A DNA stretch of 64,000 nucleotides, from NCBI GenBank assembly GCA_964541945.1, contig CAZISE010000016.1:20484-84483 (forward strand), in the 5' to 3' direction. Numbering within the stretch: the first letter of the stretch is position 1; each line of letters begins with the position of its first letter. This DNA comes from an uncultured Verrucomicrobiota bacterium. Lineage in GTDB: Bacteria > Verrucomicrobiota > Verrucomicrobiia > Palsa-1439. The notes below the pieces were generated by a model. That model saw only the letters and a program-made list of their open reading frames with translations, searched no databases and had not been told where the DNA came from. Made by a program: the position numbers and the translations under genes. Positions 9,450 to 60,016 of this stretch are shown piece by piece.

Positions 9450-10874
9450 CTAGTCCAGCCCGCCCATGTCGGCGGGCCAATCGTATTTCAGCGGCGGCGG
9501 ACATTTCTTGTCGGTCCGGAAACAGAGCGCGGGTAATCCCGCGCCGTTGACGAGGTTGGCTCCGGCCACATCATGCCAGGCAAACCGCACCTGGGTGGGG
9601 GTGGGCACCGCCTCGCTCCAGACCAGGACGGAATCCGGGCCTGCGATTTCGGCTTTTGCTGTGTGATAGACGTTGTCGGAGCCGGCCACTTCAAAGAAAG
9701 TCAGCGGTTTGCCGTTGGATGATTTGAGGCCGCCGTGGGCGTGGTCGAAGGTGATGCGCACTTTGTTGCCTTCGATGGAGTGGGCGCGGTAGACCGGTCC
9801 GTGGCAGACGATGTTGGTCATGCCATAGACGTTGTGCAACGCCAGTCGGGCCAGCCGTTCGCCGACGGGCTGTTTGTCGAGCGGGTGAGTATTGTCCTTG
9901 CGTCCGTAATCGCAGGTAAGCGCCATCCCGGAATGGGGGATGTCGAGCGCCCGTTGCATGGCCTCGCTCATCAAGGGGCGGCCAGCGCCCGGTCCCTTGT
10001 AATCGCGCGGCGCCAGTTGGGTGAAGTAGAACGGGAACGGTTGGCCGCCCCAGGCCTCGCGCCAGCCGCGGACGAGCGTCCGCAGCATCTCGTCGTACAC
10101 CGCGGCTTCGCCCACGTTGGATTCGCCCTGATACCAGATGACGCCGCGGATGGCGAACGGCGTCAATGGCGCGATCATGCCGTTGTAGAGGTGCGACAGG
10201 CCTCCGCCAAATTTCTTGTATTGTTCGCTGACGGCGTATTTACCGTCGCGGTACAGCGGTTGTTGGGCGCCATCGCGCGTCCACTGTTGGATGGCCGAGC
10301 CGCCCACGGAACTGGCGATGAGTCCGATGGGTACCTTGAGTTTTTCCTGCAAGGCGACGCCAAAATAATACGCCACCGCAGAGAATCGTCCTGACGATTC
10401 CGGGCCGCACACAGCCCATTTTGCCTTGATACTGTCCTGCGGGGTTGGCTGCACGGAGCGCGGCACCAACAGCAGGCGGATGGTCGGGTGAGCCGATTGT
10501 GCCACGATCTCTTTGCCGTGGCGTGTTGTTTGCAGTGTCATCTCCATGTTGGACTGGCCCGACGCCAACCAGACCTCGCCGACCAACACGTCGGCCAGAG
10601 TTGTCGCTCCAATCCGCAAGGGCCGGCCCTCGGCGCAGGCCGGCATCGGATCGAGTGTGACCCGCCATTTGCCGTGGGCGTCGGCGGTCGCGGTTTTTGT
10701 CTGGCCAGCGAATTCGACGAGCGCTTTTTCGCCCGGCGAGGCGGTTCCCCAGACGGGGATCGGTTGGTCTCGTTGCAGAACCATGTGATCGCTGAACACG
10801 GAGGCCGGTTTCACTTCCGCCTGCGCCGCGCCGACCAGCGCCAGGCCCATCAGAATCGCCAAGAAGAATTTCAT
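9450..10874 (-). CDS. sialate O-acetylesterase (SASA/DUF303-type SGNH esterase), secreted
   Basis: Signal peptide, then VFSDHMVLQRD.PIPVWG...GEVWLASGQSNM, the typical family N-terminus with the GQSNM catalytic block. Confidence 0.8.
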   Translation of the reverse strand: MKFFLAILMGLALVGAAQAEVKPASVFSDHMVLQRDQPIPVWGTASPGEKALVEFAGQTKTATADAHGKWRVTLDPMPACAEGRPLRIGATTLADVLVGEVWLASGQSNMEMTLQTTRHGKEIVAQSAHPTIRLLLVPRSVQPTPQDSIKAKWAVCGPESSGRFSAVAYYFGVALQEKLKVPIGLIASSVGGSAIQQWTRDGAQQPLYRDGKYAVSEQYKKFGGGLSHLYNGMIAPLTPFAIRGVIWYQGESNVGEAAVYDEMLRTLVRGWREAWGGQPFPFYFTQLAPRDYKGPGAGRPLMSEAMQRALDIPHSGMALTCDYGRKDNTHPLDKQPVGERLARLALHNVYGMTNIVCHGPVYRAHSIEGNKVRITFDHAHGGLKSSNGKPLTFFEVAGSDNVYHTAKAEIAGPDSVLVWSEAVPTPTQVRFAWHDVAGANLVNGAGLPALCFRTDKKCPPPLKYDWPADMGGLD

Positions 10875-10978
10875 GGAGTTCGGATTACATCACACCGCCC
10901 CATCCCCTGTCCAGCCATCGTCCCGCGTCGGGCGGCTTTGGGCTTGACCCCGGTGCGGCGCAATCCAATCATGCCGTC

Positions 10979-13900
10979 ATGAAACTGTGGCTGGCGATTT
11001 CTCTTCTGGCTCTCGCTTCCGTCCGCGCCGATGACCTGCCGTTCTGGGGATTGGGGCCGTTTGTCCGCGCCAGAGACGCTCGTCCGATTTTGGCGGCCAA
11101 CACCAATTCCGTCGTGGACGGCGCGCATTGGGAATCGGGCGGCGTGTACAGCCCGACGGTGGTGTTGCAGGGCGACAAACTCGCGGTGGTGTACGCCGCT
11201 CTGGATGCGCCGCCCAGCAAGGGCGGTGTCGCCCGCATCGGCCTGGCCACGGGCGCCGACGGCACCAACTTCGTCCGGGCCGCCCGTCCGGTCCTGGCCA
11301 TCGGCAACGACAAGGAACGCCTCCCGGAGTCACCCGGCGGTTGCGCCATGCCGCGTGTGGTGGAGACGGACAGCGGCGCGTATGTGATGACCTACGTGCA
11401 ACGCGGCGGCCAGCGCCCACGTCTGGCCGTGGCCAGCTCGACCGATCTGGTCAAATGGGAAAAACATGGGCCTGCCTTTGCCGACCTCAAATCGTTGTCG
11501 CTGCCGCCGGGCGCGGGCGTGATTGTGACGCGACTGGTCAATGGACGGCTCGTGGCCGCCAAGCTTGGCGGACGTTACTGGATGTACTGGGGCGAAGGTG
11601 ACATCCGTCTGGCCGTGTCCACCGACCTACTACATTGGTCGGCGCTGCCGGAGGTCGTGCTGGCTCCGCGTCCGGAGGAGTTTGACAGCGAAGGATTGTT
11701 GCCGGGCGCGGCGGTGGTGACCGAACGCGGGTTGCTGCTTTTCTACAGCGGTCGCTCCAAAAACGTTATCGCGTCGGGACAAGCCCTGTTTGATCCGTCG
11801 CAGCCGGGACGGCTGTTGTTGCGCGCCAAAGCGCCGGCGCTGCGTCCCGAAACAATGTTTGAGCGGAGCCGACGCGGCGACAATGTGGCCGCCATCAGTG
11901 GTGTTGTGCCTTTCCAGAAACAGTGGATCGCCGTTTACGCCGCCGCCAACGGCTCCGTCGGACTGGCCACCTTCAACCCGGCGGATGTCTGGACGGCGCG
12001 CAATCCCGGCCTGACCGAGCCGCAGGACCCGGCGACGTTGCCGACGGCGAAAACGCCTCCAAGCCCGCCCCGGACGAAAACCGTTCGTGTCAGCGACGAG
12101 ACCCGCGCCGACGGCGCGGTGGCGTTGCGGGCCGGTTGGCGCCTGGCCGAGGCGCCCAAGGTGAATGCCGACGGCGCGGCCATCTCAAAACCGGGTTTTG
12201 ACGACGCGGCTTGGTGGCCGGCCACCGTGCCGGGAACGGTATTGACGACGTTGGTGGACCAGGGCGTCCACCCGGACCCGTACTACGGTCTCAACAACAT
12301 GGCCATTCCGGAAACGCTGAACAAACAACCTTACTGGTACCGTCTTTCCTTCCGCATTCCGCCGGCGATGTCGCAACGCAAAATCTGGCTGCAGTTCGAC
12401 GGCATCAATTATCGCGCCGATTTCTGGCTCAACGGCGCGGCGCTCGGCTCGGTCACCGGCGCGTTCATGCGAGCGGCGTTCGATGTGTCGGGTCTGGTAA
12501 CGCGCGACGGCGAGAACGTGTTGGCGGTGAAAATCGCGCCGCCGCCCCATCCCGGTATCCCGCACGAGCAATCGCTGAAAGCGGGACCGGGACCGAACGG
12601 CGGTCAGCTTTGCAAGGATGGACCGACATTTGTCTGCACGGAAGGTTGGGACTGGATTCCCGGCATCCGCGACCGTTGCGCCGGTATCTGGCAGGATGTG
12701 TTGTTGCGCGGCAGCGGTCCGGTGACGCTGGGCGATCCGCAGGTGGTGACCCGATTGCCGCTGCCCGAGCTGGCTCCGGCGGAGGTGTTTGTCAGTATCG
12801 AAGCAGTCAATCACACCGACCAGCCACAATCCGGGCTTGTCCGCGGCAGCTTTGAAGGAGCCACCTTCGAGCAAAAAGTCGCGCTGGCGCCCCGCGAAAA
12901 ACGACTGGTGAGCTTCGTGCCGGAGACGTTCCCGTCGTTGCGCCTGTCCAAACCGCGTCTCTGGTGGCCCAACGGCTACGGCAAACAGGAGTTGTACCGC
13001 CTCAACATCGCGTTTCTCGACGAGACCATGCGCGAGAGCGATCGCCGGTTGACCCGTTTCGGCATTCGCGAGTTGTCCTACGAGTTAACCGTCCAAACAC
13101 CGCTGCCGGACTGGAAACTCCAACGCATCGAATACACACCCACTGCCGAGCGCCAACGCAAGGAAGCCGCCGTGGATGTCCGCCACGACGCTCTCTGGCC
13201 GACCGGTTTCGAAGGCAGCGGCGTGCCCACTCTCCGCACCAACTCACCCGCCGTCCGTCTCCTGCCTGCCGAAACCGCCCCGCCGCATCTCGTCATCAAG
13301 GTCAACGGCCAGCGCATCTTCATCCGTGGCGGCAACTGGGGCATGGACGACGCGCTCAAACGTGTTTCCCGCGAAAAACTCGAACCGTACATCCGCCTGC
13401 ACCGCGATGCCAATCTGACCATGATCCGTAACTGGGTCGGACAAAGCACCTCGGAGACGTTTTACGAGCTGTGCGACGAGTACGGCCTGCTCGTGTGGAG
13501 CGATTTCTGGCTCTCCACCGTCAACTGGAACCTCGATCCCGACGACAACCGATTGTTCCTCGAAAACGCCGCTGACACCATCCGCCGGCACCGCAACCAC
13601 CCCTCGCTGGCCATCTGGTGCGGACGCAACGAAGGCATTCCTTCGCCCGTCCTCAACGAAGTGCTCTGGCAGTTGATCCACGAAATGGACGGCACCCGTT
13701 ACTACCAGCCCGATTCGCGCCGGGTTAGCGCCATGCCGAGCGGCCCGTGGGATTACCGACCGCCCGACGCCTATGCCCGGCTGGCCCGCGGTTTCAACTC
13801 CGAACTCGGCACTCCCTCGGTGCCCGAAGCCGAGGTCATGCGCTCCTTCATCCCGCCCTCGGAACAATGGCCGATCTCCGATACCTGGGCCTACCACGAC

Positions 13901-49875: not shown

Positions 49876-50573
49876 CACACGCGAGGTCACGCGAAAGCGT
49901 GTCCCTTCGACAGCGGCAGGTTGCGCTTCCGAGCGAGCGGGGTTCCGTCTGCGTCCTTGTCAGCGGTGGTCTCGACAGTTGCGTCATGCTGGCCGAACTG
50001 GCAAACCGCCATGTGGTTTATCCTTTGTACGTGCGTCATGGTTTGCGCTGGGAACAAGCCGAGCTATCCCATCTCCGACGTTTCCTGCGCGCGCTGCCCG
50101 TTCCCCGTTTTCCGCTGCATGCGTTGACGGTGCTGCATTTGCCAGCACGTAATTTGTACGGCCCGCATTGGAGTCTGAACGGCAAGGGTGTTCCCGGAAG
50201 AGCATCCCGCGATGAGGCCGTGTATCTGCCAGGACGCAATCTGTTGTTGTTGGCGATGGCCTCGGTCTTCTGTGCGGTACGCGGCATTCGCACAATCGCC
50301 ATCGGCACACTGCGCGGCAACCCGTTTGCCGATGCCACGCCGGTGTTTTTCCGGCAGTTCGCCACGTTGGCTGTTCGGGCATTACACTTTTCTGAGACGA
50401 TCGTCTCACCGTTTTGTAATCTTTCCAAGGAACAGGTCATCCAACGGGGTCGTCAATTGCCGTTGCATCTGACCTTTTCCTGCCTCAACCCGCAACGCGG
50501 TCGCCCGTGCGGTCGCTGCAACAAATGCGCCGAACGCCAGCGCGCCTTTCAATCGGCGGCACAAAAACGGTAG
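49872..50573 (+). CDS. queC: 7-cyano-7-deazaguanine synthase (QueC/ExsB family)
   Basis: PP-loop VLVSGGLDS, YLPGRN, and the C-terminal zinc cluster C......C..C..C (CLNPQRGRPCGRCNKC). Start uncertain (GTG 49872). Confidence 0.75.
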   Translation: MTHARSRESVSLRQRQVALPSERGSVCVLVSGGLDSCVMLAELANRHVVYPLYVRHGLRWEQAELSHLRRFLRALPVPRFPLHALTVLHLPARNLYGPHWSLNGKGVPGRASRDEAVYLPGRNLLLLAMASVFCAVRGIRTIAIGTLRGNPFADATPVFFRQFATLAVRALHFSETIVSPFCNLSKEQVIQRGRQLPLHLTFSCLNPQRGRPCGRCNKCAERQRAFQSAAQKR

Positions 50574-51226
50574 CCTATCCCCGGTTCCGTCCTGATCAGT
50601 TTGCGTCCGGCGCCGGGTTCGAGTTTCTGGCGCAGGTGCGTGACATAGACGCGCAGGTATTGCGACTGTTCCTCGGCATGCGGCCCCCAGACGACGCGCA
50701 AGAGGTGTTTGTGAGTGACAACCTTGCCAGCGTGTCGGACCAATTCACGCAGCAGCGCGTACTCCGTGGCCGTCAGATGAACGTCCTGTCCTTTCACCGT
50801 GACGACACGAGCCGCGAGATCAACCGTTAGATCGCCGACCACCACGACTGGTTCCTCGTTCGCTTCTGGCGCGCGACGCTGAATAGCGCGCAACCGGGCA
50901 AGCAGTTCCGCCGTGCTGAACGGCTTGGTGAGATAATCATCGGCACCGTTGTCGAGCGCAGCGACCTTGTCCGCCTCGCCCTCGCGCACCGAGAGCACGA
51001 GCACGGGCGTCTGGTTCCACTCGCGCAAACGTTTCAACACCGTTTGCCCATCCATGTCCGGCAGACCGAGATCGAGAATGATCACATCGGGGCGTCGCAC
51101 AGCGGCCTCCTGAAGGCCGAGTTGCCCGGTTTCAGCCTCGAAGACCTGATACCCCTGCGGTTCAAGCGTCAACCGCAACAGCCGCCGGATCGGCGGCTCG
51201 TCGTCAACAATCAGCACGGTTTTCAT
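50549..51226 (-). CDS. kdpE: OmpR-family response regulator, KdpE-like
   Basis: VLIVDDEP.IRR.LR..L...GY, ILDLGLPDMDG, VLSVR, ADDYLTKPF..ELLARLRA. ATGA overlap with the kinase stop. Confidence 0.8.
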   Translation of the reverse strand: MKTVLIVDDEPPIRRLLRLTLEPQGYQVFEAETGQLGLQEAAVRRPDVIILDLGLPDMDGQTVLKRLREWNQTPVLVLSVREGEADKVAALDNGADDYLTKPFSTAELLARLRAIQRRAPEANEEPVVVVGDLTVDLAARVVTVKGQDVHLTATEYALLRELVRHAGKVVTHKHLLRVVWGPHAEEQSQYLRVYVTHLRQKLEPGAGRKLIRTEPGIGYRFCAAD

Positions 51227-52599
51227 GTGGCAAGTGGAATAAAAATGGTGAAGGTGACGCCTTCACCAAGGTTGTTTGTAGCGGACACCACGCCGCGGTG
51301 GGCGTTGACGAATCCCTTGACGATGGAAAGCCCCAAACCGACTCCACCGGATCGCGCGCCTTTGCCGCGATAGAATTTGTCGAACACTTTTGTCTCTTCG
51401 CCGGGCGTTAATCCGCTGCCGGCATCCGTCACGCGAAGCACCAACTGCCCTTCGCGTATTTCCGCGCTCAATCGGATGAGCGACCTGGCCGGGCTGTGCT
51501 GAGCGGCATTCAGGAGCAGGTTGCAGAGTGCTTGTTCCATCAACCCGAAATCCAGTTGCACCAGCGGCAGGCCGTCGGCGACAGTGATGTTCACCCGTTC
51601 GGGCGAAATCTCGTTTTGCAGTTGCTCGACCGCCGACTCCAACAGGTCGCGCACGTCGCACCATTCCGGGCGAAACGGGAGTTGGCCGGACTCGATCCGG
51701 GTCATGTCGAGCAGGTTCGAAACAATCCGTTCCAACCGGCGATTGGCCGCGGTAATTTCGTTGAGGAATGTTCCCGCCAACGGCGGTGCGCCATCGGCCA
51801 GTTGTGTCGCAAGGCCATCGGTCGCAGTGCGGATGACAGCCAACGGTGTTTTCAACTCGTGCGACACCGAGTCGAGCAGCGTGCGGTGAAGCCGTTCCGA
51901 CTCCTGGGCCAACTGCGTTTGCCGTGCCACGGCCAGCAGTTGTTGGCGTTCGACAAAGGCGGCAATCTGGCTGGCGAATGTCTCCAGCAATTCGCATTCG
52001 CTGGGCGCCAACACCCGGTTTCCTTTCAATTCTACACCCATCCAGCCCACGCGCCCGTTGGCCGTCTGCAGCGGCAGGCACAACGATGTTGTCGGCGCCG
52101 TTTCCTCCAACAAGATTCGAGTCTGGACCTGAAACAATGCGTTCACTTCTTCTACGGCCCGCGCGAGTCCGTCCGCCAGCGAGTCGCTCACGGCCAATCC
52201 CTGCAACAACCGGTTGAGCGCGGCGGTGCGTTGTTCACGGCGTCGCTCCGATTCCTCGCGCCGGCGCAACTGGTTGGTCATGTGCCCCATCACCAGCGCG
52301 ACGACGAAGTACATGCTGAACATCATCACGTCCTCCGTCGCTTCGATGTGGAAGGTGAATTGCGGCGGTATAAACAGGAAATCCCATAGCACGGCACTCA
52401 ACGCCGCCGCCAACAGAACTGCCCAGCGGTTCAGTTTCAGCGCCAAGAATACCACCGTGAGCAGATACACCAACGAAATCGCCCAGTAGCCGGTAACAGT
52501 GCGCAGCATCAGCGCCAACCCGGTTACCGCCGCGACTGCCAGCACGCCCCAGCCACAATGACGAAGTATCTGTTTGGCCAACGAGACGTCCATGCACAC
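51223..52599 (-). CDS. KdpD-type sensor histidine kinase lacking the N-terminal KdpD/Usp modules (DUF4118-HisKA-HATPase)
   Basis: An N-terminal four-helix membrane block like KdpD DUF4118 (ISLVYLLTVVFLAL...VLWDFLFIPP.FTF), then SHELKTPL, NLLLNAAQHS, DAGSGL, GVGLGLSIV. Start is GTG 52599 or ATG 52593. Confidence 0.8.
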   Translation of the reverse strand: MCMDVSLAKQILRHCGWGVLAVAAVTGLALMLRTVTGYWAISLVYLLTVVFLALKLNRWAVLLAAALSAVLWDFLFIPPQFTFHIEATEDVMMFSMYFVVALVMGHMTNQLRRREESERRREQRTAALNRLLQGLAVSDSLADGLARAVEEVNALFQVQTRILLEETAPTTSLCLPLQTANGRVGWMGVELKGNRVLAPSECELLETFASQIAAFVERQQLLAVARQTQLAQESERLHRTLLDSVSHELKTPLAVIRTATDGLATQLADGAPPLAGTFLNEITAANRRLERIVSNLLDMTRIESGQLPFRPEWCDVRDLLESAVEQLQNEISPERVNITVADGLPLVQLDFGLMEQALCNLLLNAAQHSPARSLIRLSAEIREGQLVLRVTDAGSGLTPGEETKVFDKFYRGKGARSGGVGLGLSIVKGFVNAHRGVVSATNNLGEGVTFTIFIPLAT

Positions 52600-52602
52600 A
52601 CT

Positions 52603-54630
52603 TTACATGATATTGGCCGCCCGTGCCGAGCGCTGAAGTCGGACCGGCAAAATCACCACCGGCACCCCGGCGAAACGGAGCCGACGTTGAATGGCGTAAG
52701 CGGTGTCGTTGTGTAGAAGACGATCAAACCAGCGCGGCTCGTCAAACACCACCTCGCCGGCGAAAAAGACGCCTCGCGCGTATTGCTGGTGAAGTTCAAG
52801 GCACAATTTGGAAACCTCCTCGACCACATCGGTTCCGATGCGATACGCGGAACGGGCCGGGATGCCCAGCTTGCCGGCGTGTTCGACGTACCGCGCCAGA
52901 TTGTCCTTCGTGTGTTGCTCCAACGCCGCCATTTGCTCTTCGCCCTTGAACAGTTCAGAGTCAATGACGCCCACCGAGACGAAGACAACATTGCGGAACG
53001 TCTCCGGGAACAGGCGAAAGATCGTCAGCAAACAATGGATGCCCAACCGCGCGTAGCCGCCGACGAGAATCAAGGCCGTCGGTTTCCGGGGATCGAAATC
53101 GCGGATCGGTTTGGATGATTCCGCTGGGATGTCTTCGAGCGTCTGTTCGACGGCGCGGACCCGCTGCCCAACGTTGTGGTAGTGCCGGCGGATCAGCAGG
53201 CAGATGCCGATGCACAGACAGGTGATCGTCAGCGTGATCCAGCCGCCTTCCTTGAATTTCATCGTCAACATCACACACAGGATCAAAAAACACAGCAGCA
53301 GCCCGGTGGCGTGGATCGGCAGATGTCGTTTCCAGTCCGATTTTGTTTTGCGGTGACGAATCCAGAACCGCACCATGCCGGTTTCCGACAACGAGAACGT
53401 TGCGAACACGTTGATGCTATACATGACGACCAGGATGCCGATGTTGCCCCGCGTGTATGCCAGTGCCGCCGCCGCCGCCAAGCTGATGAGCAGGACGCCG
53501 TTTTGCACCGTCAGGCGGTCGGACAACGACGCGAACCGACGGGGCAGCCAGTTGTCAATCGCCATGTTCGCCATCACCCGCGGGCCGTCAATGAAACCCG
53601 TTTGCGCCGCTACCAGCAACAGCACCGCCTCTGAGAACATCGTCACTGCCGCAAACCACCGGCCCACCGGCCACGACCCGATATGAAACCCGCCGGCGAA
53701 CTGATCCACAAGCACTGCATTCAATGTCCGCCCCTCAATCGGCTGCACGCGAAACAGCAGATAACAGAGGATCAACCCACACGCTGTCAACGCGAGCGAG
53801 AGAGCCATGTAGGTCATTGTGCGTTTGCCGGTCTCGACTTTCGGGTCGCGCATGATGGCAACGCCGTTGGACACCGCCTCGATGCCCGTGTACGTGCCGC
53901 CGCCGAGCGAATAGGCGCGCAGAAACAACAGGAACATTCCCCACCCGCCGAGTTGCGCGAGGCCGCTGCGAAAACCACCGGCCACGTTGCCCGCCACCGC
54001 TGGCACCTCGCCCAAATGCCGGATGATTCCGCCCACGATCAGGATGGCGTGCGTCACCATGAACGCCAGGAAAATCGGCACCAGTGGCGCGACCGATTCT
54101 TTCACACCGCGCAGATTCATGATCATGAGAAACAGAATCGCGCCAAACTCCACCGGCAACTTATACGGCTGCCATGCCAACGGCAACACGCTGAAGATGG
54201 CGTCGCCCCCGCCGGCGATGGAAACGGTAATTGTCAGCACGTAATCCACCAGCAACGCGCAACCCGACACGACGCCGGCGGGTTTGCCCAACAGTTCCGT
54301 GGACACAACGTAGCCGCCGCCGCCGTGCGGGAAATGCTCGATGATCCGACTGTAGGCGTAGGAAATGATGAACACTGTCGCTGCCGATGCCACCGCCAAC
54401 AACACGGCAAGATACGTGTGCGTGCCCAGTTGCCGGTAAGCTTCCTCCGGGCCGTAGGCCGACGATGACAAGCCGTCCGCGCCCAACCCAACCCACGCTA
54501 GGAAAGCAATCAACGAAATCTTGTGTAGGATCGCTGCGTCTTTCAGGTCGCGTGGCCGCCCTAACAAGAGTTGCCGCACGTGCGCCCATGTTCCCTGCGG
54601 CAGATGAAATTGTGTATGCGTTGTACTCAT
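52603..54630 (-). CDS. APC-superfamily transporter closely resembling the KimA (YdaO) K+/H+ symporter family, with a C-terminal cytoplasmic domain
   Basis: Block-by-block resemblance to my memory of B. subtilis KimA: LLLGRP, SSSAYGPEE, FPHGGGGYVVS, LLVDYVLTITVSIAGG.DAI, MNLRGVKES, TGIEAVSNG, and a ~190-aa soluble tail. ATG 54630 overlaps the Usp stop (ATGA). Confidence 0.7.
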   Translation of the reverse strand: MSTTHTQFHLPQGTWAHVRQLLLGRPRDLKDAAILHKISLIAFLAWVGLGADGLSSSAYGPEEAYRQLGTHTYLAVLLAVASAATVFIISYAYSRIIEHFPHGGGGYVVSTELLGKPAGVVSGCALLVDYVLTITVSIAGGGDAIFSVLPLAWQPYKLPVEFGAILFLMIMNLRGVKESVAPLVPIFLAFMVTHAILIVGGIIRHLGEVPAVAGNVAGGFRSGLAQLGGWGMFLLFLRAYSLGGGTYTGIEAVSNGVAIMRDPKVETGKRTMTYMALSLALTACGLILCYLLFRVQPIEGRTLNAVLVDQFAGGFHIGSWPVGRWFAAVTMFSEAVLLLVAAQTGFIDGPRVMANMAIDNWLPRRFASLSDRLTVQNGVLLISLAAAAALAYTRGNIGILVVMYSINVFATFSLSETGMVRFWIRHRKTKSDWKRHLPIHATGLLLCFLILCVMLTMKFKEGGWITLTITCLCIGICLLIRRHYHNVGQRVRAVEQTLEDIPAESSKPIRDFDPRKPTALILVGGYARLGIHCLLTIFRLFPETFRNVVFVSVGVIDSELFKGEEQMAALEQHTKDNLARYVEHAGKLGIPARSAYRIGTDVVEEVSKLCLELHQQYARGVFFAGEVVFDEPRWFDRLLHNDTAYAIQRRLRFAGVPVVILPVRLQRSARAANIM

Positions 54631-55121
54631 GCATTTGGGAATCTGCGCCGACTGGACCCGACCACCAACACCGGACAAGGCGCCTCACGCAACACGTGTG
54701 CCACCGTCCGTGGGTGTAGAAAACACAGCCATTCTGTGTGACGATGGCTGGCCATGACGATGAGATCGGCGCCGAGCTTTCGGGCTTGATCAAGAATTTC
54801 CTCATGGGGATGTCCTTCGACAATTACCAAGCGGACAGGACGGTCGCTTTTGCACAGCGTCGCCAGCGAACGCTGAAGTTGGATGCGCGCCTCCTCTCCC
54901 AATTGATGGAGCAGACGAGTACGGGGAATGCCGAGTTCCTCACCGCCGATATTAAGCTGTACCACGTGCAACACCGTGATCGAAGCGTTCAGCGTCTGTG
55001 CCAATTCCACTGTGTACTGCAACGCTCCGATGGACTCGAACGACAAATCCACCGGCGCGAGAATCCGCTGCAAATGAAACTGCGCCGGTTTGGAGTTCTG
55101 CATGGTGGTGTCGTTGCTCAT
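54627..55121 (-). CDS. universal stress protein (UspA family)
   Basis: ILAPVD.S, ..VLHVV, GADLIVM.SH, VAHVLREAPCPVLVV. Start uncertain (ATG 55121 or GTG 55136). Confidence 0.8.
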   Translation of the reverse strand: MSNDTTMQNSKPAQFHLQRILAPVDLSFESIGALQYTVELAQTLNASITVLHVVQLNIGGEELGIPRTRLLHQLGEEARIQLQRSLATLCKSDRPVRLVIVEGHPHEEILDQARKLGADLIVMASHRHTEWLCFLHPRTVAHVLREAPCPVLVVGSSRRRFPNA

Positions 55122-55245
55122 AATCTCTGCCAACACATCATCCGTCTATTTGCACGCCACAGGTAATTAAAAGCCACCTCGCTCCCGTTAAAAATCCGTT
55201 AACGACGGATTGACATGTAGCGCCATTTTCCCACAGAGTGGTTTT

Positions 55246-57489
55246 ATGAACCCCCTCCTCCTCGCCTGTCTTGCGGCCATCGCGTGGCTCACGGAACCGA
55301 AAACCGTTGAGATGGACCGCGGCACCAACGCCGCCATCCGCCTGCCCGATGTGACGGCTGCCGGTGGCGGCTACGTTGTCGTGCCCGTGCGCGAAGGATT
55401 GTTGGTGCCGGCCAACCCGAAACGAACATTCACACACCGTTTCGGCACCTATGAGTACGAAGGTTGCCATATGCGCATGATCGGGTTGGTCGAGAACGGC
55501 TGCGCGGCGTTGGTCACGTGGGATGATCTCTACGCAAACGCTGAGCTTCGCAATGGCCCGGCGGCGCTCGCTACGTCGTTATCGGCAAAATCGTGTCGCA
55601 TCCACTTCCTCGGCAAGGGTGATTACCTGACCATTGGCCGGGCCTACCGGAAACTGGCTCCCCAAGCCCATGCCAATCCCAAACTTTTTGGCGCTTCCAA
55701 CGTGAAACTTTGGAGCACGCTCTCCCGCCGCATGAACGACGATAGCACCAAAGAGGAATCGGTGACGGTCAACTGGACATTTGACGAAGCGGCGCAAATT
55801 GCCGAACACCTGAAGAACGACCTGAAGATTGACAAGGTGCTCTTCACCCTTGGCGGCTGGATCCATCGCGGCTACGACAACCAGCATCCCGACATCCTGC
55901 CGGCTGCGCCCGAATGCGGCGGCAACGACGGCCTGGCCGATTGTGCGCGCCGTGTCCGCAACCTCGGTTACACGTTTTGTCTGCATGACAATTATCAGGA
56001 CATGTACCGCGATGCGCCGTCTTGGAATGAAGATTTCCTTCAGAAACGACGCGACGGCAGCCTCGCCAAAGGCGGCAAATGGGCTGGCGGACGCGCCTAT
56101 CTGACGTGCGCGCAAAAAGCGTTTGAGTTGGCCCAGCGCCCGCAAAATCTTCCTGCCGTCCGAAAACTCACCCGCGCCGACGCCTACTTCATTGACACCA
56201 CCTATGCCGTCGGGTTGCAGGAGTGTTTCGACCCGAAACATCCGCTTGACCGCGCCGGCGACATGAAATGGAAGCTGGCGCTATCCGATTACGCGCGTCG
56301 GGTATTCGGGATTTTCGGCAGCGAGTGCGGCCGCGAATGGGCGATTGGCCATGCCGACTTCTTCGAGGGGCTGACCGGTGTCGGTGGAACCTATTATCAT
56401 GACAAAGGGTTACCGGCCAAACTCGGCGGGGTCGTCATTCCGTTGTTTGAGATTGTCTATCGCGACAGCGTCGCGCTGTTCGGCAAATACGGTTACAGTC
56501 CGGAAAAAGCCGCCGAATACGTTCTTCACCACATCGTCATGGGGCGCCCGCTTCACTACCACAACATCCCGCCGCATCTTTACTGGAAAGATTCGTCTGG
56601 CCGACAAAAACCATTCGATATTACGCCGTCGGTGTCCGAAGTGACGCCCCTTGAGCCGCGCAAGTTCCGCATCGCCTACCAGTGGACCGTCAACGATCTG
56701 CCGCCCGCCGACGACTGGCGTGTCTTCGTTCACTTCACAACGGCGAGCGGTGAAATTGAATTCCAGGGCGACTATGCGCCGCCGTTGCCGTGGACAAAAG
56801 GGACCGTGCAACACGGCCCGTTCACCATCATGGTTCCGGTCCATCGTGTCGGCACGTTTGATGTCCGCATCGGTTTCTTTCACCGGCAACATCACGGGCG
56901 GCTCTGGATTCGCGGTCCGCAGGACGAGGAACGTCGTTGTCTGCTCGGCAAATTGCACGTCGCCGCCAACGGCAATGTCCGGTTTGAACCGTGGCCGTCT
57001 TCCGCCGACAAACCGCTGGCGATGAGTGTGTTTGTGCGCTCGGACAACGGCTGGGCGAACGGAATGCATCCGATGGATGTGTTCATCAAAAACACGCACG
57101 AGATTCTCTCGCCGCTGCACGAGTTGACCGCGACAACGCCGCCGACGCGCCACGAGTTTCTGACGTCCGATCGCAAAGTGCAGCGTACCGTGTGGGAGGA
57201 TGTCGAGGCGGTGGTCAACATGAGCGCCACGCCCTACCAACATGGCGAGGTGTTGCTGCCGCCGTTTGGATTTGTCATTCAATCGCCAACATTTGTGGCG
57301 TTCCATGCCGCCAGCTTCAACGGCCTGCGTTACGATGATCCGCCACTGTTCACATTGCGAAGCCTCGACAACCGCCCATTGAGCCGTTCCCGTCGCATCC
57401 GTGTGTTCCACGGGTTCGGCGACCCGCGCCTCCAACTCGGCGAGAAGTTGGAAACCGTCGCCAAAGAAGCGGTGCTGTCGGCGCGTTGA
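55246..57489 (+). CDS. large secreted hypothetical protein (possible TIM-barrel glycoside hydrolase; family not recognised)
   Basis: Signal peptide MNPLLLACLAAIAWL (ATG 55246). 747 aa. The central region (GGWIHRGYDNQHPD, CLHDNYQDMY, YFIDTTYA, GSECGREWAIGHADFFEG) suggests a catalytic barrel, but this is only an impression. Confidence 0.45.
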   Translation: MNPLLLACLAAIAWLTEPKTVEMDRGTNAAIRLPDVTAAGGGYVVVPVREGLLVPANPKRTFTHRFGTYEYEGCHMRMIGLVENGCAALVTWDDLYANAELRNGPAALATSLSAKSCRIHFLGKGDYLTIGRAYRKLAPQAHANPKLFGASNVKLWSTLSRRMNDDSTKEESVTVNWTFDEAAQIAEHLKNDLKIDKVLFTLGGWIHRGYDNQHPDILPAAPECGGNDGLADCARRVRNLGYTFCLHDNYQDMYRDAPSWNEDFLQKRRDGSLAKGGKWAGGRAYLTCAQKAFELAQRPQNLPAVRKLTRADAYFIDTTYAVGLQECFDPKHPLDRAGDMKWKLALSDYARRVFGIFGSECGREWAIGHADFFEGLTGVGGTYYHDKGLPAKLGGVVIPLFEIVYRDSVALFGKYGYSPEKAAEYVLHHIVMGRPLHYHNIPPHLYWKDSSGRQKPFDITPSVSEVTPLEPRKFRIAYQWTVNDLPPADDWRVFVHFTTASGEIEFQGDYAPPLPWTKGTVQHGPFTIMVPVHRVGTFDVRIGFFHRQHHGRLWIRGPQDEERRCLLGKLHVAANGNVRFEPWPSSADKPLAMSVFVRSDNGWANGMHPMDVFIKNTHEILSPLHELTATTPPTRHEFLTSDRKVQRTVWEDVEAVVNMSATPYQHGEVLLPPFGFVIQSPTFVAFHAASFNGLRYDDPPLFTLRSLDNRPLSRSRRIRVFHGFGDPRLQLGEKLETVAKEAVLSAR

Positions 57490-58717: not shown

Positions 58718-60016
58718 GTGGCGGGAAAACCGCGACAGGAACTTGGCCTGTTCGACAGCACCTGCCTGGTGGTCGGCATCATTATTGGCGTCGGCATCTA
58801 CCAGATGGCGCCGGACATCGCCCGGGGAGCGGGCAGCGCGTGGGGGGTGCTGGGCATCTGGCTGTTGGGCGGTCTGCTCTCGTTGTGCGGGGCGTTGAGC
58901 TACGCGGAACTGGCAGCCGCCTACCCGCAGGAGGGTGGCGATTACGTCTATCTGAGCCGGGCTTACGGTCCATGGGCGGGATTCCTGTTTGGCTGGCTTC
59001 AGTTGGCGGTTGTCCGTCCCGGCGACATCGCGGTCATGGCCTTCGCGTTTGCAACGTATGCGCGAACATTGTGGGATCCGTTTCCGGGCGCGCAACGTTT
59101 TTACGCTGTCGCCGCCGTCGCGGTTCTTACGCTGATCAACACGCTCGGTGTCCGCGAGGGTAAATGGACGCAAAATCTGTTGACGGTGGCAAAAGCGCTC
59201 GGATTGTTGCTGGTGGTCGTGGCGGCATTGTTGGCCCGGCCCGCGCAGTCCGTTGCCGAGACGAGTGAGAAATCGCCATTGCCGTTCACCCTCGCGTTGA
59301 TCTTCGTCCTGTTCACCTACGGTGGCTGGAACGAAATGGCCTACGTCGCCGCAGAAGTGAGAGATCCGCGCCGCAACATCGTTCGCGCCCTGTTTCTCGG
59401 TACCGGCACGGTCACGGTCCTGTACCTGATGGTCAATGGCGCTTTCCTCTGGGCGCTTGGCTACGACGGGTTGAGCGCGTCCAAGGCCGTGGCCACCGAC
59501 ACCGTGGCGGCGGCGTTCCCGTGCGTCGGCGGCGTCCTGATCGGCATTCTCATTTGTGTTTCCGCTCTGGGCGCCGTAAACGGGTTGATCTTGACGGGAG
59601 CGCGCATTTCATACGCGATGGGCGCGGATCATCGTCTGTTTCGTCTCCTCGGCCAATGGCACCCGCGCTACGGAACGCCCGCGGTGGCGCTTTTGGCGCA
59701 GGGGAGCATCGCGGCCTTGCTCGTCATGATTTTGGGATCGTTTGTAAACGCCGTCCTGTACACGGCGGCAGCGGTGTATTTGTTCTACCTTGCGTCCACG
59801 CTGGCCGTCGTGGTGCTCCGCCACAAGGAACCTCACAGGGATCGCCCTTATCGCGTCATTGGCTATCCGTTGCCCCCGTTGGTGTTTGCCGTCGTTTGCC
59901 TTTTCCTGATCCACAGCGCTGTCACCTACAAACCGTGGATCAGCGCCAGTTCGCTCGCGTTATTACTGCTCGGCCTGCCGCTTTACCACTTCAGCAACCG
60001 TCTTGGGCGTTCGTGA
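58718..60016 (+). CDS. APC-family amino acid permease
   Basis: 12-TM pattern with G.IIG.GI, YAELA.A.P..GG.Y.Y. GTG start at 58718. Confidence 0.8.
   Translation: MAGKPRQELGLFDSTCLVVGIIIGVGIYQMAPDIARGAGSAWGVLGIWLLGGLLSLCGALSYAELAAAYPQEGGDYVYLSRAYGPWAGFLFGWLQLAVVRPGDIAVMAFAFATYARTLWDPFPGAQRFYAVAAVAVLTLINTLGVREGKWTQNLLTVAKALGLLLVVVAALLARPAQSVAETSEKSPLPFTLALIFVLFTYGGWNEMAYVAAEVRDPRRNIVRALFLGTGTVTVLYLMVNGAFLWALGYDGLSASKAVATDTVAAAFPCVGGVLIGILICVSALGAVNGLILTGARISYAMGADHRLFRLLGQWHPRYGTPAVALLAQGSIAALLVMILGSFVNAVLYTAAAVYLFYLASTLAVVVLRHKEPHRDRPYRVIGYPLPPLVFAVVCLFLIHSAVTYKPWISASSLALLLLGLPLYHFSNRLGRS

Follow-up and report, generated by a model that had tools for sequence, protein, structure and literature searches.

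Gene content and layout of the operon

[quoted passage not shown] Gene content, family assignments, conserved residues, and linkage in other genomes support a layout in which a KimA-type K+/H+ symporter appears to hold the position of kdpFABC in the classical kdpFABCDE operon. The genes and a terminator-like site are the following (lengths in amino acids, aa).

54627-55136, minus strand: stand-alone universal stress protein, 169 aa from a GTG start (164 aa from the ATG at 55121 by independent gene call)
52603-54630, minus strand: KimA-like transporter, 675 aa from an ATG start
51223-52599, minus strand: KdpD-type histidine kinase, 458 aa from a GTG start (456 aa by independent gene call)
50549-51226, minus strand: KdpE-like OmpR-family response regulator, 225 aa
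50527-50543, minus strand: terminator-like hairpin directly 3' of the regulator stop codon, from a consensus scan only

Stop and start codons overlap as ATGA between the Usp and transporter genes (54627-54630) and between the kinase and regulator genes (51223-51226), while the transporter and kinase genes are separated by 3 nucleotides (nt) (52600-52602), or by 9 nt when the kinase is started from an ATG two codons in. An earlier reading of the letters alone (the original prediction) had given this operon order, both overlaps, and the short gap, with a free-standing Usp as the first gene. All of it was reproduced by the ORF coordinates and by independent gene calls, which returned the same four genes in two public assemblies of identical sequence, and the first product matches the Pfam Usp family at 2.8e-25. 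The hairpin is the probable end of the operon; terminator-like sites in the region are not above the shuffled expectation in number, which makes it weak evidence.

The original prediction had also seen no kdpFABC genes in the window. This was borne out by tblastn searches with KdpA, KdpB, and KdpC of E. coli (locus L083; comparison loci are given as L numbers), which found no match at E < 1e-6 within the 64 kb. The largest other ORFs of the window encode, according to Pfam, glycoside hydrolases, ABC permeases, another kinase, a helicase, and an ordinary amino-acid permease, with no P-type ATPase among these matches. The sequencing runs that contain the locus are DNA metagenomes only, mostly from hot springs, sludge, and sediment; together with the names of the best homologues, they point to a hot-spring verrucomicrobium as the probable source.

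The transporter is KimA-like

Pfam places the transporter in AA_permease_2 (4.9e-21). A phmmer comparison with all PDB sequences recovered KimA of B. subtilis (6s3k) at an E-value of 1.3e-61 over residues 17 to 502 and, one chance match aside, KimA alone; no other transporter in the PDB, amino-acid transporters included, was found at E < 1. The AlphaFold2 model, built from 16 homologues (mean predicted local distance difference test score, 76; predicted template modeling score, 0.74), has 12 transmembrane (TM) helices and a C-terminal alpha/beta cytoplasmic domain. Searched with Foldseek, this predicted structure gave as its top three hits the KimA entries 8b70, 8b71, and 6s3k, with E-values from 6e-26 (best, 5.8e-26) to 1e-20 and 631 to 642 aligned columns spanning both domains. 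Eukaryotic cation-chloride cotransporters came next (1e-11), followed by amino-acid transporters at 1e-8 or weaker.

The ion sites point to the same family. In the phmmer alignment, D52, Y59, D129, T133, S137, T248, E251, and Y404 of the transporter correspond to KimA D36, Y43, D117, T121, S125, T230, E233, and Y377, and all eight are invariant across 16 homologues that are 59 to 73% identical to the window protein. In KimA, D36, Y43, T121, T230, and Y377 serve in K+ binding or as the gate, D117 and S125 belong to the tunnel, and E233 is involved in H+ coupling (PMC6994465, PMC10284832). The KimA contacts to cyclic di-AMP (c-di-AMP), R337, Y118, and N237, appear to have equivalents in R364, Y130, and N255, and an LHN(D)T stretch resembles LHNQS of KimA (H579, N580), a correspondence that is tentative since the alignment there is local and nonsignificant.

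Sequence, predicted fold, and the eight ion-site residues thus agree with the KimA-like protein, soluble C-terminal domain included, that had been recognized in the original prediction, and the comparison between KimA and amino-acid permeases comes out on the side of KimA. To judge from its sequence and model, the protein can be assigned to the KUP/KimA subfamily as a KimA-type K+/H+ symporter, and we infer that it transports K+. Its family comprises at least 8000 database clusters below 1e-10, distributed over many phyla and named only as amino-acid or APC permeases.

Two further sets of genes concern the same superfamily. Within the window, a second APC-superfamily gene (58718-60016, plus strand; 432 aa) reaches 190 bits against AA_permease_2, far above the 76 bits of the KimA-like protein; this gene appears to encode a regular amino-acid permease and provides an internal contrast. 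On a 703-kb contig (L085:4684-12134), a BBP2 porin, amtB, and glnK precede two KimA-like paralogues in tandem (71% and 48% identity to the window protein), and a third APC permease and glnA are close by, which raises the question of whether some members of the family are tied to ammonium or nitrogen status.

A truncated KdpD and a KdpE-like regulator

The kinase begins at the DUF4118 membrane block of KdpD, as had been claimed, and has lost what precedes it. Pfam identified DUF4118 (1.1e-25), HisKA, and HATPase_c above threshold and a shortened, sub-threshold GAF but neither a KdpD (PF02702) nor a Usp domain; the ORF starts only 3 to 9 nt past the transporter stop codon, and residues 1 to 395 of E. 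coli KdpD, used as a tblastn query, had no match in the window. What is present is a four-helix DUF4118 membrane block, the shortened GAF, a dimerization and histidine phosphotransfer (DHp) domain with the phospho-accepting histidine, and a catalytic and ATP-binding (CA) domain. Together, they align with residues ca. 400 to 883 of E. coli KdpD, with H247 in the place of KdpD H673 and a GAF region ca. 38 residues shorter. Matches in the PDB were the KdpD catalytic core (6lgq; 2.5e-36) and the KdpD TM domain (2ksf; 2.5e-6), and the best NCBIfam family was KdpD (NF007793), at 250 bits against 148 for the next family and below the cut-off of 1123.

The closest database relatives of the kinase are a mixture of DUF4118-first proteins of 450 to 520 aa and of PF02702-containing KdpDs that are 55 to 63% identical to it. 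Two of the PF02702-containing relatives, whose contigs break off within the gene, precede KdpE-like regulators 78 to 80% identical to that of the window. When metagenomes were scanned with the kinase as query, nothing was recovered beyond near-identical copies and a few distant KdpDs. This mixing with full-length relatives and the matches to the KdpD core therefore identify the protein as a recently truncated KdpD and not a generic DUF4118 kinase.

The regulator has the Pfam domains Response_reg and Trans_reg_C and is 58% identical to E. coli KdpE (129/222 aligned positions). Both the phospho-acceptor, D52, and the residues for DNA binding (Y191, R193, H198, R200, and T215) are retained; among the latter, R193 is reported to be specific to KdpE orthologues (PMC3264566). 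Its best NCBIfam family was KdpE (NF007820), with 268.9 bits versus 189.9 for PhoB, although the equivalog cut-off of 325 was not reached. These features support a two-component pair derived from KdpD and KdpE.

Recurrence of the pairing across genomes

A scan with one genome per species provided 80 loci encoding relatives 52 to 66% identical to the window transporter, from Verrucomicrobiota, Myxococcota, Desulfuromonadota, Gemmatimonadota, Acidobacteriota, Planctomycetota, Bacteroidota/Ignavibacteria, and other groups. To read their neighborhoods, the window proteins and the Kdp proteins of E. coli were used as tblastn queries. In 14 of the 80, KdpD/KdpE or kdpABC genes are found no more than 8 kb from the KimA-like gene, a strong enrichment because a Kdp locus makes up far less than 1% of a genome. 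At eight loci (L017, L032, L055, L058, L059, L060, L068, and L078), a DUF4118-first KdpD-type kinase is encoded beside the KimA-like gene, and seven of them also have a KdpE-like regulator, 47 to 55% identical to that of the window; in L032, the contig ends first. One of the eight is the cultured Geomonas azotofigens Red51 (L060), with the arrangement kimA-kdpD'-kdpE.

The remaining linkages are of other kinds. Next to the KimA-like gene are genes for full-length KdpD and KdpE in L073, a gene for the KdpD N-domain in L038, and kdpABC in L022, L029, L067, and L076, the last being Geobacter argillaceus, with the order kimA-kdpABC-kdpD. No kdpABC was found at the truncated-kinase loci within the sequence available, and it was present at 4/6 loci with a KdpD N-domain. 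In a neighbor-joining tree of the catalytic cores, L060 groups with L076, L078 with L073, and the window, L086, and L101 with L099 and L100, which suggests repeated loss of the N-domain. [quoted passage not shown] In a metagenome-assembled genome (MAG) of the Gemmatimonadota (L055:9958-11037), a gene for a BBP2 (OmpL-like) beta-barrel porin (Pfam, 3.5e-68) separates the KimA-like gene from the truncated KdpD/KdpE pair, which suggests an outer-membrane component of the uptake operon.

Taken together, comparative genomics supports a recurrent re-assortment of regulator and effector.

The universal stress protein as a probable added partner

In the original prediction, KdpD had been regarded as split into separate parts, and this did not hold. 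The N-terminal KdpD domain is encoded nowhere in the operon, and blastp detected no similarity between the window Usp and the Usp regions of four proteins (E. coli KdpD, the full-length KdpDs of L073 and L076, and the KdpD N-domain protein of L067); homologous Usps, moreover, precede KimA-like genes. The kinase is therefore truncated, not split. An origin of the Usp as a detached KdpD domain was rejected for want of a match to any of these four N-terminal regions, and the protein is better read as an added partner.

The window Usp is 51% identical to the Usp of L086 and 30% to that of L067, both encoded directly upstream of a KimA-like gene. The gene order in L067 is kdpA-kdpB-kdpC-kdpD(N)-usp-kimA, and L017 has an 80-aa Usp remnant in the equivalent position. 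The window protein is without the G-x2-G-x9-G(S/T) ATP-binding motif, as read from its sequence; in this group of Usps (window, L086, and L067), the nucleotide loop is absent and an (S/A)HRH-type stretch replaces the glycine-rich loop. An iterative hidden Markov model search for this Usp type across the 80 loci matched only L067 and L017, and its being a general companion of KimA-like genes was rejected on that count.

A partnership between Usp and transporter is plausible because the cytoplasmic domain of KimA has a nucleotide-binding fold like that of phosphopantetheine adenylyltransferase (PPAT) (PMC6994465) and because an APC-Usp fusion exists in L088. There, a KimA-like gene 75% identical to that of the window has directly 3' of it the gene for an APC-type permease of 641 aa in which a Usp domain forms the C-terminal part (L088:8058-9983; Pfam Usp, 6e-8). 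Another composite protein of 556 aa follows kdpABC in a Deltaproteobacteria MAG (L067:5711-7381) and consists of a KdpD N-domain (PF02702, 6e-90), a weak Usp, and a C-terminal EIIA-2 domain of the phosphotransferase system (PTS) (1.8e-17). The E. coli EIIA-Ntr (PtsN) has been reported to interact with KdpD, and the 556-aa protein could be a "Rosetta stone" fusion of the partners EIIA-Ntr and KdpD.

Upstream DNA

In Bacillus, kimA is controlled by a c-di-AMP riboswitch, and the original prediction had proposed that another setting replaces it here. A search of 50300-55500 against Rfam, on both strands, gave no match at E <= 1, including none to the ydaO-yuaA riboswitch. Control of the operon by a c-di-AMP riboswitch was rejected on this result, obtained at a permissive threshold, and the replacement proposed earlier is in keeping with it. 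Two elements were distinguished upstream of usp.

55185-55202, minus strand: candidate response-regulator box, direct repeat TTAACGG-N4-TTAACGG with 11-bp periodicity (TTAACGGATTTTTAACGG), ca. 65 nt upstream of the Usp ATG
55162-55173, minus strand: conserved block CTTTTAATTACC, invariant across three sequences (window, L091, and the diverged L086) between differing flanks

The box consists of an exact 7-mer occurring twice, within the ca. 120-bp region between usp and the divergent gene, and is the sole match in the window. In L086, where the transporter is 77% identical and the flanking genes are different, the same position reads TTAACGATTTCTTAGCAG, i.e., TTAACGA-N4-TTAGCAG, with the box largely conserved. 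The KdpE site of E. coli, TTTATA-N5-TTTACA, confirmed in L083, has the same geometry as the window repeat (PMC3264566), and by this analogy we infer that the repeat is a candidate binding site of the regulator. The Gemmatimonadota locus L055, which has the kinase-regulator pair, shows a TTAACA-N5-CTAACG repeat ca. 40 bp upstream of its KimA-like gene. The block CTTTTAATTACC is possibly a -10-like promoter element; a consensus scan of the region gave no sigma-70 promoter.

Among the 80 loci, the pattern CTTGAY-N5-CTTGAY (at most one mismatch) had 22 matches in 2 x 1.08 Mb. Ten of these are on the coding strand within ca. 450 bp upstream of a KimA-like gene (in L028, L060, L068, L073, L076, L077, and L078), compared with ca. 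0.4 expected by chance, and further boxes precede kdpA in L076 and kdpD in L073. The most telling single result is the kdpA copy of the box in the same genome as kimA copies (L076). In L028 (7887-7935) and L077 (7854-7870), the boxes stand before KimA-like genes with no KdpD/KdpE pair nearby, the neighboring kinase and regulator of L028 not being of KdpD/KdpE type; the regulon link may reach beyond genomes in which the genes are adjacent.

Interpretation and alternatives

We consider that the operon is probably a K+-uptake unit under KdpE-type control. The wiring of a KdpDE-like system to KimA, as originally predicted, stands insofar as a KdpD/KdpE-derived pair shares one compact operon with the transporter and no kdpABC is present in the window; what fell was the division of KdpD. 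K+ sensing in E. coli KdpD has been mapped to the membrane, GAF, and catalytic parts, and these are the parts that the truncated kinase keeps. Under K+ limitation, the kinase would phosphorylate the KdpE-like regulator, which would attach to the direct repeat with 11-bp spacing that precedes usp and turn on usp-kimA-kdpD'-kdpE, its own genes included. The N-terminal serine kinase of KdpD, which switches off KdpB, would have no target here and would have been lost, and the Usp would most likely act as a post-translational partner of the transporter or of the signaling pair.

Several observations weigh against this interpretation. Most KimA-like genes have no two-component neighbor, including most relatives 71 to 79% identical to that of the window; the wiring is therefore lineage-specific, and a cassette ancestral to the transporter clade was rejected for the same reason. 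Conversely, a closely related truncated pair (66%) adjoins a TnsA-like gene, and not a KimA-like gene, in L101, and the tree of catalytic cores has no support values. With up to three mismatches, the repeat pattern is not rarer than chance in the window, its half-site TTAACG differs from the TTTAYA of E. coli KdpE even if the 11-bp spacing is equal, and a generic comparison of linked with unlinked loci for 11-bp direct repeats in the upstream DNA gave only a weak positive signal (p = 0.02), less informative than the motif-specific scan. The CTTGAY pattern is similar to a -35 hexamer, and it was derived from L060, L073, and L078 and then counted there too, so that the independent loci are L028, L068, L076, and L077. 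The cassette is near phosphate and polyphosphate genes in both the window and L086, in different arrangements, and no RNA runs holding the locus were found among the sequencing runs searched.

Some of these points bear on other explanations. The pair might be an ordinary KdpDE paralogue whose true target is a kdpFABC operon elsewhere in the genome, with the transporter and Usp genes merely on a shared transcript served by a KdpE-independent promoter. The kdp search took in 64 kb of the genome, the two uptake systems do not shut each other out (L076, L067, L022, and L029 have both KimA-like genes and kdpABC), and L101 has the same truncated pair without KimA. We nevertheless regard this explanation as unlikely. 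The stop/start overlaps make co-transcription with the regulators nearly unavoidable, E. coli kdpDE are classically read through from the promoter that they activate, a repeat box of the OmpR-family type is present at the only available promoter, and the serine-kinase domain acting on KdpB is missing from the kinase. It is also possible to imagine that the kinase senses another cue, such as phosphate limitation, osmolarity, or pH, and that the operon supplies K+ as a counter-ion or osmolyte under that stress. This would accommodate the two different arrangements in which the cassette is in or near phosphate/polyphosphate genes, as well as the GAF region ca. 38 residues shorter than in E. coli, and E. 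coli KdpDE has reportedly been connected with phosphate limitation (PMC5458449). Retention of the DUF4118 membrane block and the catalytic core speaks for the original input, however, the pairing is also seen in other phyla with no phosphate genes in the vicinity, and the same CTTGAY box precedes kdpA in L076; we find a different cue quite improbable.

A more radical objection would be that the transporter takes up no K+ and is an APC-superfamily permease for amino acids or other organic cations. Pfam offers only AA_permease_2 and AA_permease as placements, the homologues carry the names "amino acid transporter" or "APC family permease" in databases, and paralogues adjoin amtB-glnK in L085. 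Set against this are the PDB sequence search, in which KimA and no amino-acid transporter reached E < 1, structural E-values of 1e-8 or weaker for amino-acid transporters versus 6e-26 for KimA, the invariance of all KimA K+-coordinating and H+-coupling residues, and the repeated adjacency of KimA-like genes to kdp genes. An organic substrate is, in our opinion, very improbable. We thus retain K+ uptake under KdpE-type control as the preferred reading of the operon.

Neighboring genes

The divergent gene that shares the repeat-box intergenic region (55210-57489, plus strand) encodes a 759-aa protein with only weak DUF5696, DUF6259, and GH129-like matches, which may be an uncharacterized glycoside hydrolase. 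On the other side, between 27175 and 48034, the window contains genes for a CHAD protein, a Ppx/GppA-HD protein, a ROK kinase, thymidylate-kinase-like proteins, a Porin_5 porin, two very long PstC/PstA-like permeases, and a PAS-HAMP kinase. The cassette of L086 lies between two pst/phoU clusters (L086:1-5350 and 10075-13600), beside a PhoB-like regulator. A connection between K+ and phosphate is possible.

Novelty and significance

All of the parts are known (KimA/KUP symporter, KdpD catalytic core, KdpE, and Usp), and it is their combination that is new. Work on KimA has, to our knowledge, been confined to Firmicutes, in which c-di-AMP acts on it at both the RNA and the protein levels. KdpDE is regarded as a regulator dedicated to the Kdp pump, and a paper on single-target regulators reportedly includes E. 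coli KdpE (PMC5934670). Full-text literature searches on KimA with KdpD, KimA with KdpE, and DUF4118 kinases without the N-terminus turned up no account of KdpDE-type control over a KimA-type gene. The pairing looks like a reused, apparently undescribed way to switch on K+ uptake.

A broader generalization, which we put forward tentatively and with more doubt than conviction, is that KdpD/KdpE might be a portable K+-limitation switch, re-targeted independently several times from the ATP-driven Kdp pump to a proton-driven KimA-type symporter in Verrucomicrobiota, Desulfuromonadota, Myxococcota, Gemmatimonadota, and Ignavibacteria-like lineages. The serine-kinase domain would have been lost each time, and in some lineages a dedicated Usp would have been gained and would have taken over the post-translational control of the transporter, the role that c-di-AMP has for KimA of the Firmicutes. 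If true, this would show how Gram-negative phyla regulate a very large KimA-like family with thousands of database members. It would also amount to an independent evolutionary test of the control of KdpB by the KdpD N-domain, missing where KdpB is replaced, and would lead to better annotation of a widespread, misnamed transporter family.

Comparison with known systems

B. subtilis KimA (YdaO; 6S3K, 8B70) and the window transporter have in common a 12-TM LeuT-fold domain with a C-terminal alpha/beta (PPAT/HUP-like) cytoplasmic domain, the D-x-LSS-x-AYG stretch in TM1, and all K+-site, gate, and H+-coupling residues. The window protein is, however, only ca. 25% identical and comes from a Gram-negative phylum, and its gene has no ydaO-type riboswitch upstream, being grouped instead with a Usp and a two-component system. 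For the free Usp there is a precedent in UspC, a soluble Usp of E. coli that scaffolds KdpD/KdpE by binding the Usp domain of KdpD (PMC2714519); that target is missing from the window kinase, and the window Usp belongs to the group found upstream of KimA-like genes. Stand-alone KdpD-type TM/GAF/DHpCA kinases were described in the survey of KdpD architectures by Silberberg et al. (2024), which covered only species with an annotated Kdp pump (PMC11018627). The TM/GAF/DHpCA kinase reported there is paired with a separate KdpD/Usp chain, whereas at the window locus no KdpD-domain protein is encoded nearby and the neighbor is a KimA-like transporter.

Another close model is E. coli kdpFABCDE, in which the uptake system is likewise followed by the sensor kinase and then the regulator, with overlapping genes. 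The regulator has the same DNA-contact residues as KdpE, the kinase has a KdpD-type membrane block and catalytic core but not the ca. 400 N-terminal residues that make up the KdpD and Usp domains, and both operons have upstream a direct repeat of two half-sites with 11-bp spacing, TTAACG in the window and TTTAYA in E. coli. The effector differs as well: the genes of the P-type ATPase are replaced in the window by that of a proton symporter.

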